From: a virus
Taxonomy: Duplodnaviria; Heunggongvirae; Uroviricota; Caudoviricetes
Virus record (IMG/VR): IMGVR_UViG_2744054962_000001
Length of the DNA stretch: 64,000 nt
Direction: 5' to 3' (one strand)
The notes under the pieces are model-generated. The model searched no databases. It had not been told where the DNA came from and worked only from the letters and a program-made list of their open reading frames with translations. The position numbers were made by a program, and so were the translations under genes. Positions 15 through 40,343 of the stretch are shown here, in pieces; the first letter of the stretch is position 1, and each line of letters begins with the position of its first letter.

Positions 15-3000
15 ATGGCGCAAAATGCGCCGTTCGCGATGCAGGCGTTAACAGATTCCTTCGTGAAGTTTCGTTCTGCTGGCTTAGATCCAACCGATGG
101 TTCTCTGAAGGCGCTGGTGGACTCCGTTGCTCGTTTTGGTGGTGATAGTGAGCTGTTGAAACGTGCGGCTGTGGCCGTTCAGCAGATGTCCGGTAAGGGC
201 GTTGTGTCAATGGAAGAGCTACGTCAGCAATTAGGTGAAGCCGTTCCTAACGCGATGCAGGCAATGGCAGACGCCGCAGGCATCACTATGGGGGAACTGA
301 CTAAAGCCGTTGCCAGCGGTACGGTTGAGGCAAAACAGGCGTTGTCTCTGATGTTTGTTGGTCTGCGTGCGGAGAATGAGAACGCAGCGAAAGACATGAT
401 GCAAACCTACACAGGTGCGCTGGCGCAACTTCAGACGTCATTCACGTTATTTGCTGATCGGGTTGGTCAGGCCGGATATCTGGATTCTCTATCGAAGGGG
501 ATGAAAGAACTGGCTTCAATCATGAATAGCGCCGAAGGGATTTCGTTTGCCAATTCTTTAGGCTCGGGGTTAACGACGGCAATCGATGGGTTGCGTCAGC
601 TTGCTCAATGGTTAGCAAAGAACCAAGAGCTGGTGATTAATCTCGGTAAGGTCGTGGCCGCGATGGTTGCGTTCAAACTGATGCGAGCAGGGATCATGGG
701 GGTAGTTGGCGCAGGCAGCCAGATGGTTAGCACCTTTGCCACGATGGCGACCGCCATACAGACTCCATTTAACCTCGGCGCTACAGCAGTAACCCGATTC
801 AATCGTGCGGCACGTATGGGGCTGGCTCCGATCCCCTCTCTTATTTTCGCCATCCGTGGGGCGATTACGGGGCTTAAAGGCGCTTTTGCTGGATTAACGG
901 CGTTCATTGCAGCAAACCCTATAGGGGCAGCATTTACAGTTGCCACTGTAGCTGTTGCTGGCCTAATCACGTACATGACCATGCTCCGCAGCGAAACTTC
1001 AAAGGTCGTTGACGAGATTAGGAAAATACCAGAGGCGATGACGGCGGCCAAACGTGCACAGATGGCGGAGTATAAAGCGCGTCTTGAGCAACAAATCACG
1101 CAAAAGGAACAAGAGTTAAAATCTGGCGAAAAGGTGGTTTATGGGCCGGGTATGGCCGGAACTACAGTAAAGATTAATCAGGATGAACGTAAGCGTATAG
1201 AAAATGAGCTAAATGACCTTCGTAAGAAACGCGATAAAACTACTGGGGCAATTGAACGCGGAGACATTGCTGTAGCCAAACGTCTTGCAAAAGATGCGGC
1301 AGAATCACAGATAGAGAAAATACGGGAAGAGAATAGAGACTTTGCGGCAACATTCGTGAAAGCCCGGCAGGAGGCTCTGGATAAGATCCAGAAAATCAAT
1401 GATGACGGTTCACTTTCAGATGACGAAAAGAACAAGCTATTGGCACCGTTACGTGAAACGGTAAACAAAAGCTATCTGGAGCCTGCGCAAAAACTGGTTG
1501 ATTCACTTTCTTCTCGTAAGAATGCTGTCGAGGGGCAAATAGCCACTCTTAATGATCAGCTTGAAAAAGCGAAAAAGGAAGGAAACACCGAGCAGATCAA
1601 GAAACTGCAAGGCAGTATTCGTGGTTATCAGGAGAATTTGGAAGTCGTCGCTCAGGAACTGACTCAGGCAGAGTTCGAGAGAGATAACGCTGCCAAAACT
1701 GGTAAGGGCGTAATGTCAAACCAGGGGACTGTTCTGGGGTTAGGTACAACTGATAAAGCTGCTCAGAAGGCGCTGGCGCAATATATGCGAAACCAGATGG
1801 ATTCTGCGACTTATCAACGTACTTTGCCTGACGGCACTCCGATGATGGACTTCGAAGGTAAGCCGATTATTGGGCCTAAACAACTCAAGACGCAGCTTAA
1901 TTTGCAGAAAGCATCCAGTGCCAGCTCTCTGGAGAAAATGAGCGATGAAGAGCGTGCCGCAGCCATTGCCGCACTTACTAAAGCTCGTGAACAGGATGCC
2001 GCAGCCGCCGAGAAAGCAGCCCAACGATCAGCTAATGCCTCGCAGCGTGCGGCCAAGAAAGAACAGGCAGCGCAACAGAAACTGGCGGCCGGATATCAGA
2101 AGGCTCTGGATAAAGCCGATCAGCTTATGGGGCAAATGGGTGAAAGCTCTAAGGCTACGGTATCGTTTGATCAGTCTCTTCGCGATACAACAAAATCGCT
2201 AACTGATTTGGCTAATGCGATTCCTAACGAGTTCATCACTCAAGAGATGATCGACAAGGCGAAAAAACGTCTTGAAGACCTCAAAAATGCGACACCTGAA
2301 TATCGCGAGATGTTTAATCGCCGCAATGTTGAGCAGATGATCTCCACTTGGGCACCGAAGGCGGATTCCATTATTAGTGCTGGCTATACGCCGTCTCGCG
2401 AAGATAAAGTTGCTGATTTCGAAGACACCTACAACCGCAATCTCAAAGCGTTGATAGAACTTCGTGATAAGGCGTCTGATCCTAAAGTTGTGGCGCTTTA
2501 TACAAAGAAAATCAATCAACTGATTGCTGCTGGCAATACCGCGCTTATTAAAGAGACGGGGACTGCGACGCAGAAGTTGGCACTGGAATACGAAAACCTG
2601 GCAGAGCAGATCGAAAGCACCTGGACTGATTTGTTTAGTGGCTTAACTGATGTCCTGACTGATTTCGTTATTAACGGGAAGATGAGCTTCTCCAGCCTGT
2701 CTCAGTCCATTTTGAAAGATATCACCAATATGGTCGTGAAGTCGCAAATCACGCTGCCTCTAATGAACATGTTGGGGATGGGAGCCACCGCAGCTGGTAG
2801 TTCACAGAGTGGTAATTTGCTCACCGGGGTTGCTTCCGCAGTTGCCAATCAAGGTGTGCGCATAAGCAACACTGTTAATGGCGACAAGTCGGTAGGAGAA
2901 GCCACGAAGGAGACGTCCAGTTCGGTAACTGGATTGGGGCAAACAACACAGCAGACCACCAGCGCAATTGGCACTGCAACAAATGCGATTGGTAGCTGGG

Positions 3001-26823: not shown

Positions 26824-27039
26824 ATGATCGTATTAAGTAAACGGGAGAAGGAAACGCTTCATGAAATCAGTAAGTGGCCGGAGTTCCCTGAGTACTGGAA
26901 GCCTAAAACGCGAGCTAAGTTAGAGCGGTTAGGGTTGGTTGCAAACGTTTCTGAAACGAAGTGTTCGGCCAACTACCAGTTAACTGATAAAGGGAAAGTA
27001 TTGCTACAGCAATTAGTAGAATCAGGAGTGTTAAAATGA
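26824..27039 (+). CDS. hypothetical protein
   Basis: 71 aa, AAGGAG RBS upstream. Confidence 0.3.
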   Translation: MIVLSKREKETLHEISKWPEFPEYWKPKTRAKLERLGLVANVSETKCSANYQLTDKGKVLLQQLVESGVLK

Positions 27040-27184
27040 TTCCATACATCTCATTAGCTTTTATGGGTGGCTTCCTTATCGGCTTCGGCATCTGTCGTGA
27101 TTTAATTAAGCAGGAACTTAAAACCAAAACACTGTGCATCGGAAAGCGTGTGTATCGGGTAGTTCATGAAACAAAGGTTAGAAA

Positions 27185-27475
27185 ATGAGCAATTTAACTT
27201 CTTGGGACTGGTGGTTGGCCACCTATTTCTTAGCGGCCGGAGTCGCATTCGCCTTTTACGTAGGTCAGTTAGTCGTAAAACTGTTGCTGATTAAATTTGC
27301 CAGTCATAAACGTATCGATGATGGTCTGTGGCGTCTTGGCACCCTGGTGGAAACTCGCTACGGGCAACTTAAGGAGAACGAAACCATTACTATCCAAGCG
27401 AAACGATTCACTGCCACCATCACAAGAACACCTAGTCGTAGAGTGGCCTTGATCAAAAAAGTCACAACCGAATAA
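27185..27475 (+). CDS. hypothetical membrane protein
   Basis: 96 aa, N-terminal TM. Confidence 0.3.
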   Translation: MSNLTSWDWWLATYFLAAGVAFAFYVGQLVVKLLLIKFASHKRIDDGLWRLGTLVETRYGQLKENETITIQAKRFTATITRTPSRRVALIKKVTTE

Positions 27476-28253
27476 AAACATATCGATAAGTATTTACTTA
27501 CTTATCCTTTGTGTATAAGATGACTTTGTTTTCGTTGAGACGCGACTGTTTGAACTTAAATACAAGTGCAAACGAAGAAGTCTATCTGGCAGTAGCCTAA
27601 TAAGCCAAACACCAGCGAGGTCAGTTTCCAGCCTCGTTACCGAAATGGGACACACTGAGCGAGTGTGATTGCAGAACGCAGGAGGGAACATTCATGTTCC
27701 CTCCGATGAAGTAACAGAATGGGCGGTTGGTATATTTTCAACTCCATATGACTCCCGGATTCTTAGCCACTGACCGCCCATCCTGTTACGTCATTTTGTT
27801 CAATTATGTCGTTTATACTGGGTTAAAAAGCGGCGACGTAGCCCGGCTGGTATGGTTAGCCAGCACACAACGTTGAGGCCATTACATTTTTATCAATTCT
27901 AAGGTTCTATTCACAGAGATACCGGCGAGCGTTGATATGTAACATGTTGGGCAAACATTCAATCGGAGTAGTGGCCTCAACGTTGTGAAGACGGGATTGT
28001 TGTGTAGGTTTAACCACTGTTGCCATTGGTGCCTGTTTTCACAACAAATGATTCCATACATCACATTGTATAAATTACAAAGTAGGTGCTGTCCTCAGAA
28101 ACATCATCTACTTAAAGATTTTGCCTTCTACTATTGAGCGAAGTCGAAAGCGTCTGGCACTAACGAAAAGTGCAAGTAGCGGTGCGTTTCATGGCAGAAA
28201 CTAAACCGTCGCGATTGGCACTGTTGAGTAATAAATACTGGCAGTGCTGAATT

Positions 28254-28328
28254 GATGGTGTAGCTCAGCGGTAGAGCAGTTGGCTGTTAACCAACTGGTC
28301 GGTGGTTCGAATCCACCCACCATCGCCA
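28254..28328 (+). tRNA. tRNA-Asn (anticodon GTT)
   Basis: cloverleaf read by hand: acceptor GATGGTG/CACCATC, D-arm GCTC-AGCGGTA-GAGC, anticodon loop CTGTTAA, T-arm GGTGG-TTCGAAT-CCACC, encoded CCA. Confidence 0.8.
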
Positions 28329-28330
28329 AT

Positions 28331-28406
28331 GCCGGTTTAGCTCAGTTGGTAGAGCACCTGCCTTGTAAGCAGGATGTCAGCGGTTCGAATCCGTTAACCG
28401 GCACCA
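28331..28406 (+). tRNA. tRNA-Thr (anticodon TGT)
   Basis: acceptor GCCGGTT/AACCGGC, anticodon stem CCTGC/GCAGG with loop CTTGTAA, T-loop TTCGAAT, encoded CCA. Confidence 0.8.
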
Positions 28407-28414
28407 ACACAATT

Positions 28415-28501
28415 GGAGAGTAGAGAGCATGGTGCTCAAGCGGTCTTGAAAGCCGTCCCATTGCGCAAGCGATGATGGTTCGATTCCATTACTCTCCGCC
28501 A
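28415..28501 (+). tRNA. tRNA-Ser (anticodon TGA), type II with long variable arm
   Basis: acceptor GGAGAGT/ACTCTCC, anticodon loop CTTGAAA, variable-arm hairpin CATTGC-gcaa-GCGATG, T-loop TTCGATT, encoded CCA. Confidence 0.7.
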
Positions 28502-28656
28502 GACACAGCGTTGAGCGGTTTGGCCTATTAATCAACTCGATTAAGACTCCGCTAACATAAACCAGACCGCTCAACGCTGTGATAGACAATTACGGCAGAC
28601 GTTCTTAACCATAGCTTGCTAACATCATAGCAACACTTTTTTTCAGCGCAAAATTC

Positions 28657-28680
28657 AAAGGGGCTTCGGCCCCTTTTTTG
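28657..28680 (+). terminator. rho-independent terminator downstream of tRNA cluster
   Basis: AGGGGC-ttcg-GCCCCT followed by TTTTTT. Confidence 0.7.
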
Positions 28681-28722
28681 CAACTGAAAGAGTCAAGTCT
28701 ACGAACTTTGTAGGAAGAAATA

Positions 28723-29073
28723 ATGACCAGCAAAGAGAACACACCACTAAAAGTCACCTCTGAACACATTGAACAACTCATTCAAAGTGAACATTATTTC
28801 ACTGCATATGATGCCAGCCACGGGGATAACTTCATCTCTGTTTACAATTCAAAAACAGATATCGACAAAGGTCATGAGTCGTTAAAACTCTTAACGTTCT
28901 GCGTTATGGTTCTCAAAAATGGATATACCGTAACGGGAAAATCTGCGTGCGTAAGACCAGAAATCTTCAACTTTGATGTTGGTCGCGAGTACGCTCGAAA
29001 AGATGCTATCGATCAAATCTGGCCCCTGGAAGGCTATCTCCTGAAGCAAAAGTGGCATGAGGCAAAGCAATGA
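28723..29073 (+). CDS. hypothetical protein
   Basis: 116 aa; translationally coupled to downstream glutaredoxin-like gene. Confidence 0.3.
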   Translation: MTSKENTPLKVTSEHIEQLIQSEHYFTAYDASHGDNFISVYNSKTDIDKGHESLKLLTFCVMVLKNGYTVTGKSACVRPEIFNFDVGREYARKDAIDQIWPLEGYLLKQKWHEAKQ

Positions 29074-30054: not shown

Positions 30055-30193
30055 CTGTCTCGAATCCCTCTTTATTAGTATAAGTTGTCTTATTGTACCC
30101 TACCAAACGTTTATATGCATTGTTATGTATTATTTTGATTTTCAATATTACCTCCTAGAACGAAGGGTAGATTTCAAAAAACGCATCCTTAAT

Positions 30194-30220
30194 GATTCCA
30201 TACCTACTATGTATGGAATC
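30194..30220. promoter_or_regulatory. candidate tyrosine-recombinase core site (lox/dif-like)
   Basis: GATTCCATAC-ctactat-GTATGGAATC: perfect 10-bp inverted arms around 7-bp spacer, about 100 bp upstream of recombinase gene. Confidence 0.4.
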
Positions 30221-30321
30221 ATTGCCGAAAATGAGTTACTTTTACTCTTGATCCTATAAGAATCTATGCCTAATATACTGTTTACTTATACAGTACATCG
30301 GCGTAACTCGGTGATTGTCAT

Positions 30322-35988: not shown

Positions 35989-38900
35989 ATGAAAGCACTG
36001 ATGGTTCGAACTGACTTCTCACTTGGGGAGTCGGCTCTAAAAGCAGAAAACGCGGTGAAGATTGCCAGAGAAGCTGGCTACACCGCTGTAATTTCAGCAG
36101 ATAGCATGAATATTGCGAGTGTTATTCCACTACAACGTGCCGCTGGTGACGACATGGCGGTTATTTGTGGTGTGAAACTAAATATCGTTGATGATCCTAC
36201 ATACGAGCACCGGGCTAAACTTGCTAAAGAATCTATGAGATGTATGGAATCATTAGAGCGGGGACGTAACTACTCGTTTACCGCTCTAATTAAAAATGAG
36301 CAAGGATATCGCGACATCTGCGAACTAATGACGGTGGCCAACACACGAGAACAGTTCTACTTTGTACCGCGTCTCTCGCTCGAACAGTTGGTTTCTACAT
36401 ATGCCAAAGGCAACATCATCCTGCTCACTTCCGACATCGGTAGCGTGTTCCAACGCAACGATTTTGCAAAAATCATAAGCTCACTGATTACAGCGGGCGG
36501 GAAAGACAACTTCTATAGCGTGGTTTATCCGCACCCTACCCCATTCTACGACCAGATTAACGTCCGAGCGATGAAAGTAGCCAGCGCACTGAAAATAGAG
36601 CCAGTAGCGTTCTATCCCGCTTATTACGAATCGATCGACGATGCAGACATTAAAGACATTGCGCACATGGTTACGAACAACATAAAAATCGACCAGCCGC
36701 ATCGTCTGCGTATCCCCCACCAGCGAGATAACGCCATCAATGGTCGTCGCCATCTCCTTGAGGCGCTTAAAGCCTTCTCCGTTCGCATGGATGTGCCGGT
36801 AACAGCTGCAATGGCCTCAACAACGCAGGACTCCATTATCGATGCCTGCACATGGCGCTGGCATGAATTGCCACCAGCACTGCCCAAGATGGCAGACGAC
36901 GAACCTGCAACGCTGATGAAACTGGCTGTTGCAGGGCTGCGTAAACGTCTTACCACAAAAGAGTTTGGATACACACCACCTGCTTCTGAGAACAGGGTTT
37001 ATGTTGAGCGGCTAAAGTACGAAATGAACACGCTGACTCGCCTGGGATTTTGTGGTTACTTCCTGATGGTACGCGATCTGATGAATCACAGCCGTGAAAC
37101 TGGCATTCCTGTCGGGCCTGGTCGTGGTTCCTCTGCCGGTTCTCTGGTGGCGTGGTGCATAGGCATAACCAACGTCGACCCAATCCGTCACGGTCTTCTG
37201 TTTGAGCGTTTCATCAACCCTGAGCGTCTCGACTTGCCGGATGCGGACTTGGACTTCAGCCAGGCACGTCGCCATGAGGTGATCGAGTATCTGAATGAAC
37301 GCTACGGCGAAGATTACGTTGCAGGCATTCCGAACTTCACCTACCTGGGCGCAGCCTCTGCACTACGTGACACCGCTCGTATTTATGGTGTGGAGTCCGC
37401 AGATATGGCGGTATCAAAAGAACTGAAGAACGTCGAGGATGATAGCCTTCCATTGGAAGAGCTGCGCGAACAACTGGCAAGTCTCGACAAATACGCAACA
37501 AAATATCCTGATGCATTCAATGCAGCCTGCAAGTTACAAAGCCTTATGCGTGGCTTTGGTAGACATGCGGCAGGGATGATTGTAGCAGGTGTTCCTCTGA
37601 CAGAACGTACACCGGTTGAGCGCCGTGGTGACGCGCGTTGTATCGCATTTGACAAGCGTTACTGCGAGGCTATGGGCCTAATTAAGCTGGACGTGCTTGG
37701 CCTGGCAACTCTCGATTTGCTCGATAGTGCAAAACGCTACATAAAAGAGAACACAGGTGAAGATATCAATCTTGATGCCATTTCTCTTGAAGATCGCAAG
37801 GTGCTGGATGGTTTTGCTGCAGGGTATACACAGGGCGTATTCCAGCTGGAGTCCGGCCCCATGCGCAAGCTGCTTAAAGATCTAGGCGGTGGCATTGAGC
37901 CAATGAGCTTTAAAACCGTTGTCGCCACGACCGCACTCTTCCGACCTGGCCCGATCCAATCCGGCATGTTGGACGACTATGTCTCCGTGGCCAAAGGCTT
38001 CATGGCTCCACATTCAATTCATCCGCGTCTTGAGGAAGTCACCCGGGAGACTAATGGTGTTTTGCTCTATCAGGAACAAATCATGCAAAGTTCCCGAGTA
38101 CTTGCCGGGTTCTCTATGGCCGAAGCAGACGCTCTGCGTTCCGCTATCGGTAAAAAGAACATGGATAAGATGAAAGCGATCGGCAGCGATTTTGTAGAAC
38201 GAGCACAAGCAGGCTGGGTGACACTGTCACTCAAAAATGGAGGCACTGTAGAGGTTCACAAACACGCAAAACTGGATTGCTCAGACGGTAAGCGTAGAAG
38301 CTACAGCGAGGCTATTAGTGACGGCATAGACTACGTGGAGATCGTCTCTGAACAAGAAGGTCTCAGTAAGGAAAAAGCCCAAGAAATATGGGACGCCTTT
38401 GAGAAGTTCGGTGGATATGCCTTCAATAAATCACACTCCGTTGCTTATTCTTTAATCAGTTATCAGTCTATGTGGTTAAAGACACATTACCCTGCTGAGT
38501 TCTTCGCTGCTGCGCTCACCATTCTGGGCGAGGATAAGCACCAGGGGCTGGTTAAGGATGCGCTGACCTATGGCATTCGCGTATTGCCACCAGACGTTAA
38601 CGTGTCATCTAACCGAATCGAGATCCGCACGCTTGAAGATGGCAGCCAGGTGCTGTATGCGCCATTCTCTGCTGTGAAAGGCTGTTCTGAAAATGGTTGT
38701 CAGGCAATTATGCGTGCGCGTGAGAAAGTTGGTGGCAAATTCGAGTCAGTGGCACAATTCGATGAAGCGGTCGAGAAGCGTGCATGTAACAGTCGTGTAC
38801 GCGAGTCGCTTCATAAAGTAGGGGCTTTTGCGTCAATTGAGCCAGGCAGTCTGCCAGCAACTGATCCTGAACGACTGCGCGACCAGGCTGAGCTGATGGG

Positions 38901-39525: not shown

Positions 39526-39798
39526 AAAGAATTATGGCGCTTGTTGAGGAAGTCACTCCTCTTACGCACTTTGTTTTGCCATGCCGGCAGTTAGCTTCTG
39601 CCTTTGACTATTCATGCGGCAACCCCGCATTTCGCCACAATGGGCAATTCACTTTTATGGAATAAACTGGCCGTTGTGTCGATTTAATTAGCATGGCCTT
39701 ACCATGCTAATTTATTCAACTTGTACAATCCTACAAATCTATCCACTCAGGCTTACACCGTCTTCGTTATTGTAGAAATGAGGATCATCAGCGTTGAA

Positions 39799-40014
39799 TC
39801 AGCTTAGAGCAACGACATTTGCTGCTGCTGGGCCTTTAGCACCATTCTCGATAGAGAATTCGACCTGCTGGCCTTCTTCCAAAGTGCGGAAATTATTACT
39901 CTGAATTGCCGAAAAATGTACAAAAACATCTTTACTGCCATCAGCAGGAGAAATAAAGCCAAAGCCTTTATCAGAGTTAAACCATTTTACTAAACCAGTC
40001 ATTTTATTAGACAT
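39799..40014 (-). CDS. cold-shock protein (CspA family)
   Basis: [23 protein letters not shown]...[12 protein letters not shown]1/RNP2-type cold-shock domain; start at internal Met of the track ORF. Confidence 0.8.
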
Positions 40015-40343
40015 AGATATTACCTTCTTAATTTTGTGAGCCACATAGTGCGGCGAGAATTTGATCTGTATAGATTGGGACTTACTTAGGCACTTAAGGA
40101 GGAGGCTCACGAAGAAGGGAAATCAGAAGATAACACTGAACTGAGACTGCTTTACTAAAACTGCTTACATAAGGTCTGTCTTGCAAACCAACGATGCTAT
40201 TAACGCATACCCCTTCTTTTCATGCAACCTTTATTTTTCAAAGATAACTAATTTTTGTCACCATTGGTTTAGTAAACGTTAACGAACCAGACGATGCCAG
40301 ACACCTTTACAGAGAACAGATGCCCGCCAATTGGCGGGCATCA

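Follow-up and report, generated by a model that had tools for sequence, protein, structure and literature searches.

A leader RNA beside a phage-plasmid tRNA cluster with a module resembling the mRNA-like half of tmRNA

Introduction

Transfer-messenger RNA (tmRNA), together with SmpB, is the main ribosome-rescue system of bacteria and a drug target, and the context of its resume codon, an A-rich stretch with AUA at positions -6 to -4, is known to be important. In the tag that it encodes, the N-terminal AN(D/E) and the aromatic residue at position 6 are SspB-type determinants, and the C-terminal ALAA is read by ClpX. Some phages depend on SsrA (lambda-P22 hybrids, Mu), and to our knowledge every known form of tmRNA carries its own tRNA-like domain. 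Here we describe a stretch of 64,000 nt (the window) from a virus of the Caudoviricetes (IMG/VR record IMGVR_UViG_2744054962_000001), in which positions 27493-28679 look like one plus-strand non-coding unit. In order, it would consist of a promoter-like site, a structured leader RNA of about 730 nt, three tRNAs, a terminal hairpin and tandem terminators. Sequence comparison and predicted structure place the initial ~150 nt of the leader (27528-27674) in an RNA family, widespread among phages, whose layout is homologous to the mRNA-like half of tmRNA.

Surveys of tmRNA have reported phage ssrA only in mycobacteriophages, in Bacillus phage G and, as a form reduced to the tRNA-like domain ('TLD-only'), in mycobacteriophage DS6A (PMC4131195). 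The DS6A RNA, a partial tmRNA encoded by the phage, is thought to interfere with trans-translation in the host (PMC4131195); it keeps the tRNA-like domain only, and the family described here keeps the mRNA-like domain only, so that each is the mirror image of the other. In two-piece permuted tmRNA (RF01849-51, RF04321), the coding function likewise lies on an RNA apart from the acceptor 3' half, and base-pairing holds the pieces together (PMC11915505). The models of these two-piece forms give the best sub-threshold Rfam matches to the phage module. There, however, both pieces come from one gene in one genome and rebuild a tRNA-like domain, whereas the partner proposed here is the host's complete tmRNA, which would be paired through its mRNA-like region and not through the acceptor or P2.

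Compared with ordinary tmRNA (RF00023), the phage module shares a resume context that is A-rich and followed by GCA (UAAAU directly before GCAAACGA in most lineages, ACAAGU directly before GCAAACGA in the window), a start-less frame of 10 codons, a tag of the form AN(D/E)xx(Y/F)...A, a helix-5-like stop loop, and H-type pseudoknots after the frame. It differs in lacking the acceptor stem with G3:U70, the T-arm, CCA, pseudoknot PK1 and the P2 helix, in a tag C-terminus of LAVA, LMVA, LMAA or MVAA rather than ALAA, and in its Rfam score of 14-29 bits against a gathering threshold of 47, with no call by ARAGORN. Prophage antisense small RNAs such as DicF resemble the family in their 5'-proximal seed against a host RNA and in being encoded in phage non-coding leaders; the family differs from them in that its proposed target is a stable non-coding RNA (tmRNA), not the ribosome-binding site of an mRNA, and in having a potentially decodable frame of its own. 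Long, ornate non-coding RNAs that lie beside tRNAs, or are co-transcribed with them, are known in phages from ROOL, GOLLD and the stable RNAs of the T4 tRNA cluster. ROOL and GOLLD are likewise large phage RNAs beside tRNAs; they differ from the present RNA in sequence and architecture, and neither gave an Rfam match up to E 10.

The tmRNA-like module

In BLAST searches for distant relatives, positions 27516-27670 matched unannotated DNA of unrelated phages, including Felixounavirus, HK620 and Klebsiella siphoviruses, and more than 50 non-identical family members were gathered by a pattern scan of IMG/VR and further fetches. The variants and their upstream contexts delimit a start-less, tag-like frame of 10 codons followed by TAA TAA (27568-27603, plus strand). 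The frame up to its first stop (27568-27600) had been missed in an earlier note on this DNA, which was made from the sequence alone. The window reads UACAAGU followed by GCA AAC GAA GAA GUC UAU CUG GCA GUA GCC UAA UAA (ANEEVYLAVA), and E. coli ssrA reads AUAGUC followed by GCA AAC GAC GAA AAC UAC GCU UUA GCA GCU UAA (ANDENYALAA), so that 22 of 33 nucleotides are identical, counted by eye. All 22 distinct 33-nt frames retain ten sense codons and a stop, which is TAA, TAG or TGA. Entropy at the three codon positions is 0.37, 0.41 and 0.89, the third position being about 2.2 times more variable than the first and second. Of the two alternative reading frames, one is interrupted in 20 of the 22 versions and the other in 9. 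The encoded tags fit AN(D/E)xx(Y/F)L(A/M)(V/A)A, with exceptions in P1 (ANDDLMMVAA) and one N4-like phage (ANDDVVLMAA). In 36 of 42 distinct upstream contexts, the stretch from the closest in-frame stop to the GCA lacks an ATG, GTG or TTG in frame, so that canonical initiation is unavailable to this frame.

The sequence around the frame is also arranged as in tmRNA. Ahead of it lies an A-rich linker with a tmRNA-type resume context (27552-27567, plus strand), to which the resume regions of the Rfam models beta_tmRNA and tmRNA_permuted align below threshold. The stop codons fall in the loop of a helix-5-like stem, GGC/GCC (27588-27606, plus strand), which is invariant in the window's lineage (group A); two of its three pairs are invariant throughout the family, and the pair choices of other lineages look different by eye. 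A predicted pseudoknot, PKa, follows (27616-27650, plus strand), with stem 27616-27620 / 27632-27636 and with loop 27626-27630 pairing to 27646-27650. Among 44 distinct sequences in a model-based alignment, each of the four tertiary pairs of PKa changed on both sides, and these pair counts are conservative because both the MAFFT and the model-based alignments mis-register group A by one column. Across the same 44 sequences, 90% of cells were paired in the structure of the whole module, compared with 31-45% when it was slid. The hairpin CACACU/AGUGUG that comes next (27651-27667, plus strand; 100% paired) corresponds to stem 1 of a second pseudoknot, PKb, of other lineages, where four pairs covary (variants CAGACU/AGUCUG, CGCAGU/GCUGUG and CGUACU/GGUAUG). 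PKb is present in most lineages, and its second helix is not evident in that of the window.

A Klebsiella-type tag start, GCAAACGACAATCAGTAC (ANDNQY; found in phage-plasmids of the L016/L026/L039 type, L numbers being our labels for loci), is identical over 18 nt to the first six codons of Proteus vulgaris ssrA (L209). This identity to a Proteus-type ssrA hints at the origin of the module by capture.

Distribution of the family and search for a tRNA-like domain

A custom covariance model built from 13 diverse members found exactly one copy in the window (27526-27674, plus strand; 126.9 bits, E 5.6e-23), the next match scoring 9.8 bits. It found 46 copies in other loci and matched every searched locus except E. 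coli ssrA, to which there was no match up to E 0.001. By BLAST, relatives occur in 766 phage records (Felixounavirus, Kuttervirus, N4-like, HK620 and P1), and the element is present in 258 of 5426 complete E. coli genomes. Among the matches listed (the 766 phage records and 258 E. coli RefSeq genomes), the element has no annotated feature or has hypothetical-protein calls, and it has no RNA annotation. With the Rfam tmRNA models RF00023, RF04321 and RF01850, whose thresholds are 47-84 bits, the window reached 14.0-21.7 bits and relatives 15.4-29.2. The Rfam/Infernal scan that the earlier note had proposed recovered the three tRNAs and nothing else at gathering score in 27476-28620, and up to E 10 it added only weak tmRNA, YrlA and miscellaneous matches. 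ROOL, GOLLD, YrlA, ribozymes and similar candidates were considered and rejected, with no Rfam match.

Neither ARAGORN (permuted forms included) nor Rfam found a tmRNA in the window, and the same holds for segments of 55 family loci; the window represents 64 kb of a phage-plasmid of about 108 kb, the remaining ~44 kb lying outside it. The complete genome of HK620, which carries the element, gave no tRNA or tmRNA call with either program. The tRNAs downstream of family members are ordinary Asn, Arg(UCU), Ser and Met species, with no alanine identity and no G3:U70. Upstream of the frame, PK1 and the P2 helix were not found, the space holding only a 3-bp hairpin and the antisense blocks described below, with the promoter-like site abutting. 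Since no tRNA-like domain was found, the RNA is not a tmRNA by the defining feature of that class; its mRNA-like half is organised alike.

In wV8-type Felixounaviruses, an odd tRNA-like gene (L003, phage wV8, 2702-2785) lies 5 nt after the module and 155 nt after the tag. Its acceptor stem bears G3:U70, A73 and a CCA that is encoded; the D-stem is missing, the anticodon loop carries UCU and the variable region is long. ARAGORN misses this gene, and the Rfam tRNA model gives it 31.7 bits; between it and a variant in L123, the anticodon stem shows a compensatory change from GCGGU/ACCGC to GCUGU/ACAGC. This gene was rejected as a general tRNA-like partner of the module because the corresponding place in other Felix-like phages is taken by an ordinary tRNA-Arg(UCU). 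The P1 copy (L132, 886-1065; 89 bits, tag ANDDLMMVAA) lies in the leader of the C1-repressed ban operon, directly after an annotated 'dicF-like region' and ~280 nt before tRNA-Asn and tRNA-Thr, and is itself unannotated. The HK620 copy (L004/L256; genome 15830-16000) lies in the pR' late leader, flanked by qut and the tQ terminator, and would thus be part of a constitutive short late-leader RNA, which we take to be the counterpart of lambda 6S RNA.

A full-text literature search for a prior description did not find the element. The pipeline of a tmRNA survey relies on ARAGORN and Rfam matches (PMC11915505), and both miss it. For what appears to be a tmRNA-derived RNA without the tRNA-like half, we found no annotation, Rfam family or description in the literature.

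Complementarity to host tmRNA

The 5' end of the module (27528-27551, plus strand) is a predicted antisense domain, its pairs placed by RNAduplex and RNAcofold. Block GUUUUCGUUG (27528-27537) pairs with nt 95-104 of E. coli ssrA, and block GCGACUGUUU (27542-27551) with nt 82-91, including G90 and C91 of the resume codon. The 5' motif GUUUUCG is conserved in essentially all family members, and together with the adjoining downstream sequence it forms a collinear antisense match to E. coli ssrA. In HK620-like phages, P1 and Kuttervirus, three blocks face ssrA nt ~68-80, 86-91 and 96-106. The first of these targets is the 3' strand of PK1 and the A-rich linker (by the PK1 limits that we assume for E. 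coli ssrA), the second extends to the first two bases of the resume codon (90-92), and the third comprises codons 3-6. The antisense stretch would lie at or near the 5' end of the RNA, because recognisable promoters sit just upstream. In the window this is a promoter-like site, TTTACT-17 nt-TAAGAT (27493-27521, plus strand; predicted transcript start ~27527-27529), which at 8/12 to consensus escapes a consensus scan; both hexamers are kept and the spacer drifts in an alignment of 14 relatives, and sister lineages have TTGACA-17-TATAGT or TTGACA-17-TAGATT in the equivalent position.

A pairing-alignment score was compared with that of 200 mononucleotide shuffles. For ten representatives of seven other lineages (HK620-like, P1, Kuttervirus, Serratia, N4-like, Felix-like and Erwinia), the score against ssrA reached z = 2.3-7.1, was equalled by 0-4 of the 200 shuffles, and always fell on ssrA nt 57-107; the L031 lineage gave z 0.4, with its best alignment elsewhere on ssrA. 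For each of the five RNAs tested, the minimum-energy structure given by RNAcofold contained these intermolecular helices, and the net gain exceeded every shuffled control for HK620 (-14.5 kcal/mol) and L022 (-17.0). That different lineages pair the same target with different sequences and in different registers argues for selection on the pairing. Across 120 Enterobacterales species the target in ssrA is almost without variation, which fits the invariance of the GUUUUCG motif; Proteus and some Yersinia are among the hosts in which the resume region differs. The possibility that the 5' domain pairs with the tag region of the same element was considered and rejected, the scores being below those for host ssrA in 13 of 14 representatives. 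Duplex energy was rejected as a test of significance, the value for the window being -26.3 and that for random 36-nt windows -23.7 +/- 4.7.

Long hairpins of the leader

The earlier note had drawn attention to three long-stem inverted repeats and a perfect palindrome near 27680, all of which are present on the plus strand and fold better than 200 dinucleotide shuffles (z -4.5 to -10). The palindrome is an 11-nt perfect repeat (27681-27691 / 27694-27704) that forms a hairpin of 10-11 bp (z -4.5). The three long stems are I2, of 22 nt and 91% complementary (GUAACAGAAUGGGCGGU..., 27706-27727 / 27773-27794; z -5.1), with a hypervariable interior; I3, of 20 nt and 95% complementary (CACAACGUUGAGGCC..., 27866-27885 / 27968-27987; z -6.7), with a variable 82-nt interior; and I1, of 25 nt and 88% complementary (CACAGCGUUGAGCGGUUUGG..., 28504-28528 / 28557-28581; z -10.0), which begins 2 nt past tRNA-Ser. 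A further stem, I8 (27982-27995 / 28032-28045; z -3.3), had not been listed before. For these five inverted repeats, only 0-1 of 200 shuffles folded as well; a small hairpin, GCUGG(U)/(A)CCAGC (27846-27864), has z -1.1 and is not significant alone. The arm sequences given earlier needed one correction, the 3' arm of the second hairpin being GTAGTGGCCTCAACGTTGTG and not ATGGCCTC.... The termini CACARCGTTGAG, common to two hairpins, occur 4 times in 64 kb, compared with 0.66 expected, and only at this locus.

Helices read from the window were scored on an alignment of 14 distinct relatives. The stems keep their pairing, with 96.7% of cells paired, compared with 32-44% when the 3' partners were slid by 1-3 columns, and with 25 double-changed pairs, compared with 10.0 +/- 1.9 in shuffles (0 of 500 reached 25). 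The comparison across related genomes for conservation and covariation, which the earlier note had put forward as a check, is therefore positive. Because 85 cells held G-U and only 9 A-C, the stems are to be seen as plus-strand RNA structures and not as features of duplex DNA or of the minus strand. Each long stem has compensatory changes of its own, and the interiors are hypervariable. Among relatives, 5 of 10 pairs of the palindrome (27681-27704) are double-changed, as are 6 pairs of I3 and 3 of I8; in I2, 99.4% of cells over 24 pairs are paired, with frequent change from G-C to G-U on the 3' strand; and hairpin 27846-27864 shows a compensatory change from G-C to A-U in 2 relatives. I1 is conserved as the end of the unit, its type always closing the unit ahead of the terminators with compensatory changes, such as GUUGAG/CUCAAC to GCUGAAC/GUUCAGC (by eye). 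The hairpins are conserved RNA helices of the unit's precursor. Of the functions once suggested for them, the RNA options (processing signals or a small RNA) are supported by the plus-strand compensatory and G-U changes, by the position of the stems in one unit with the tRNAs, with the promoter-like site ahead and the tandem terminators behind, and by the 5' RNA module.

The sequence GUUGUG (27982-27987) forms both the last 6 nt of the 3' arm of I3 and the first 6 nt of the 5' arm of I8, so that the two pairings are mutually exclusive over 6 bp, and neighbouring modules share a GUUGUG strand in other phages as well. In relatives, the hairpin module types recur in arrays with tRNAs, type 1 being CACAAC-GGUAAG...CUUACC-GUUGUG and type 2 GUUGUGGUGAAUGCGC...GGCCACCACAAC, and CACAAC/GUUGUG junctions of modular hairpins flank tRNAs. 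The near-perfect duplexes I2, I3, I8 and I1 (17-25 bp) might be accessory scaffold or processing modules, acting as RNase III-type substrates or as nuclease barriers that keep the parts of a polycistronic non-coding precursor apart and stable. Their length fits the roughly two turns of near-perfect duplex that RNase III processes. RNase III processing stems are known from rRNA operons and T7 early transcripts, where, as here, near-perfect duplexes bracket functional RNAs in a polycistronic precursor. The present hairpins differ from them in that their interiors are 28-82 nt of variable sequence with no mature functional RNA, and their cleavage is putative. In Felixounavirus versions, PKb is followed by one short hairpin and then the tRNA, with no long hairpins, and the long hairpins are for this reason placed outside the tag mechanism proposed below.

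A proposed mechanism and its alternatives

The best explanation overall, to which we give an even chance of being right, is a conserved leader that combines hairpin modules with a tmRNA-like module docking on host tmRNA. The 5' stretch would anneal to host tmRNA at nt ~82-104 (nt ~57/68-106 in sister lineages). This would hide the start of the host tag frame, its resume codon and first codons, and put the linker and resume codon of the phage RNA there instead. The phage frame would then be read, as far as its own stop codon, by ribosomes that host Ala-tmRNA-SmpB has rescued, which would add a tag AN(D/E)xx(Y/F)LAVA in place of ANDENYALAA, and an RNase P cut at tRNA-Asn would set the 3' end of the leader. 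Docking is the simplest reading of the module because the frame is coding-constrained and cannot be initiated canonically, a tRNA-like domain is missing, and an antisense handle is present. The more specific proposal, that enterobacterial phages and phage-plasmids (SSU5-like, P1, HK620-like, Felix O1-like, Vi1-like and N4-like) use a surrogate mRNA-like domain to reprogram trans-translation to a phage tag, is tentative, and we would put its chances somewhat short of even. In the phage tag, the N-terminal AN(D/E) and the aromatic position 6 remain and the ALAA C-terminus is swapped, and the replacement of ALAA may therefore change the fate of the tagged proteins.

A number of observations weigh against docking. 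In group A, the pairing score against ssrA reaches only z 0.4-0.9 (0.9 in the window), which is not significant, with two 10-bp blocks; by RNAduplex, 1537 of 5332 random 36-nt windows pair with ssrA as well as the window element does. The RNAcofold gain of the window (-9.7, compared with -4.0 +/- 2.5) is marginal at about 2 standard deviations, the control minimum being lower, and for wV8 and P1 the net gain is no better than controls. The invariance of the ssrA target makes phage-host covariation uninformative. The window's subgroup has in-frame TTGs upstream of the tag, by eye with no Shine-Dalgarno sequence before them. A simple consensus scan of the window reported neither the promoter nor the terminators, the latter probably because their stem was extended into the T run, and for this reason we infer the transcription unit from conservation and direct reading; a Yersinia pestis RNA-seq catalogue lists small RNAs of pMT1 at other coordinates only and none at the RNA locus. 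We know of no precedent for a tmRNA template supplied in trans, the docking geometry may be unworkable on the ribosome, and we infer every functional step of the mechanism. The scaffold or processing role of the long hairpins is a working view drawn by analogy.

The main rival to docking is that the RNA acts as an antisense inhibitor only, an anti-tmRNA small RNA that masks the resume codon, its frame being undecoded and kept as a mimic (of a ligand site for SmpB, S1 or RNase R) or as a relic. The antisense complementarity, its 5'-terminal position and the lack of a tRNA-like domain to bring the frame to the ribosome would all suit such an inhibitor, but the coding signature (10 codons fixed, three forms of stop, third positions ~2.2 times more variable) would not. 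Synonymous changes also leave the aromatic and Ala positions intact, and such features would not be preserved by a pure RNA mimic; we regard inhibition alone as unlikely. Extra stable RNAs, such as species 1 and 2 of T4, are common in phage tRNA clusters, and the element always lies in non-coding RNA islands, often beside tRNAs, so that it could be an ordinary structured leader of a tRNA operon in which the tmRNA-like piece is a non-functional captured fragment of ssrA. This is quite improbable, given that the frame, the stop, the pseudoknot covariation and the antisense blocks are kept across Felixounavirus, Kuttervirus, Schitoviridae, P1, HK620 and SSU5-like plasmids, and that HK620 has the element with no tRNA at all. 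Finally, two-piece tmRNAs exist (PMC11915505), and the module could be the coding piece of a two-piece phage tmRNA, with the acceptor piece elsewhere in the phage or in a neighbouring tRNA or tRNA-like gene. The wV8-type gene without a D-stem (G3:U70, A73, CCA), 5 nt past the module, and the T-arms in some relatives' modules speak for this. However, a tRNA-like domain is found neither in the 64-kb window, out of a phage-plasmid of ~108 kb, nor in the whole HK620 genome, the downstream tRNAs lack alanine identity, other Felix-like phages have a normal tRNA-Arg at the wV8 position, and no complementarity was found that could join two pieces, all of which makes a two-piece tmRNA very improbable.

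As for the long hairpins, it is possible, if doubtful, that they are decayed or remodelled tRNA genes in which acceptor-like stems survive and the interior has been replaced by variable cargo. By eye, the Y-type module of L101 contains a near-complete tRNA, with D-arm and T-arm, between GUUGUGGU and ACCACAAC; X-type modules (L005, L022, L053, L089 and L099) have a T-arm beside the 3' strand; and L088 has, just after tRNA-Asn (~2220-2370, minus strand), a tRNA-Thr with its anticodon arm swapped for ~80 nt, with acceptor, D-arm and T-arm intact, which looks like a tRNA scaffold with cargo. These relatives suggest that the repertoire is probably in part tRNA-derived. The window's own hairpins, on the other hand, have no tRNA-like match in Rfam up to E 10 and no T-loop motif, and a tRNA-derived origin would be compatible with the docking explanation, which it leaves untouched in concerning origin. 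The earlier note had also considered DNA-level elements, either miniature repeats or a replication or packaging signal. The 12-nt terminal inverted repeats common to two hairpins, and the recurrence of related module types in other phages, could point to miniature inverted-repeat transposable elements (MITEs) or to a signal for replication, single-strand initiation or packaging. Membership among MITEs was rejected, since the terminal inverted repeats are present in one place per genome with no further copy in the window: across 210 E. coli genomes I3 occurs once, or at most twice, in each, always on a plasmid and never on a chromosome, and the hairpin is thus approximately single-copy and confined to one locus of these phage-plasmids. 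The retention of G-U on the plus strand (85 against 9) points to RNA, the hairpins are co-oriented with the promoter, tRNAs and terminators, and nothing was found pointing to a replication or packaging signal, so that a DNA-level role has hardly any probability in our estimation.

If docking is correct, the RNA would be the first trans-acting tmRNA template and a new form of viral takeover of host protein quality control, and so categorically new; otherwise, it would be a tmRNA-derived RNA lacking the tRNA-like half. It is conceivable that phages edit the tag of host tmRNA, or at least switch tagging off, and this hypothesis bears on the dependence of some phages on SsrA. In that case, the loci would be arrays in which RNA modules, partly derived from tRNAs, sit on scaffolds and carry additional cargo. 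The apparently "empty" DNA near phage tRNA genes does hold conserved modular RNAs that current annotation pipelines overlook. The family is present in model phages (P1, HK620 and Felix O1 relatives), and clinical lineages carry it on plasmids (pHCM2/pMT1-type), which makes experiments easy.

Genomic setting

The window belongs to an SSU5-like phage-plasmid, and by BLAST its positions 27400-28750 are 99.1% identical to Escherichia phage Cyrano and 97% identical to E. coli 'phage CMS-2020a' plasmids. The non-coding part is ~78-80% identical in Salmonella phage SSU5, in Klebsiella and Enterobacter phage-plasmids and in Yersinia pestis pMT1. The records of Cyrano and SSU5 leave the interval from the last small open reading frame (ORF) to tRNA-Asn without annotation. 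As the earlier note had stated, a tRNA-Asn/Thr/Ser cluster is embedded in a long non-coding region, which is borne out by ARAGORN, Rfam, the ORF list and PHROGs/Pfam searches. There is no credible ORF in the 778 bp (27476-28253) from the stop of ORF 27185-27475 to tRNA-Asn, or in the 221 bp from tRNA-Ser to the ATG at 28723. A protein-coding reading of the region was rejected, the five largest mechanical ORFs having no PHROGs or Pfam match, and indels among relatives in the interval have lengths that are not multiples of three.

ARAGORN and Rfam place tRNA-Asn(GTT) at 28254-28328, tRNA-Thr(TGT) at 28331-28406 and tRNA-Ser(TGA) at 28415-28501, all on the plus strand. The last of these, tRNA-Ser(UGA), scores 31 bits with the Rfam tRNA model (threshold 29) and 40.5 bits with tRNA-Sec, which is under the threshold of 47. 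Upstream of tRNA-Asn, the alignment of relatives shows a less conserved part of the leader (28063-28253, plus strand), which contains a hairpin GCACU-AACGAAA-AGUGC (28157-28173, plus strand). Two terminator-like hairpins, identified by direct reading and kept in relatives, end the unit on the plus strand: TTGCTA-ACATCA-TAGCAA with T7 (28616-28643) and GGGGC-TTCG-GCCCC with T6 (28657-28679).

In Yersinia pestis pMT1 (L253, 701-1219), the conserved non-coding RNA region ends directly after I3 and adjoins caf1R, and the tRNAs are missing. Apparently, then, the RNA island of pMT1 was truncated by insertion of the F1 capsule locus. At another place in the window (39774-40192, minus strand), Rfam gave a full-length match of 187 bits to the cspA thermoregulator 5' untranslated region.

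The leader also contains a 15-mer, ATGATTCCATACATC (28048-28062, plus strand), that is essentially invariant in the relatives covering it. With up to 2 mismatches it has 5 copies in the window, compared with 0.11 expected, the others lying at 27036-27050, 30192-30206, 30208-30222 (minus strand) and 36239-36253 (minus strand). Two copies form the palindrome ATGATTCCATACCTA-C-TATGTATGGAATCAT (30192-30222) in a divergent region upstream of the integrase gene. The 15-mer at 28048-28062 is probably a DNA-level half-site for protein binding, a putative operator of a phage-plasmid regulator.

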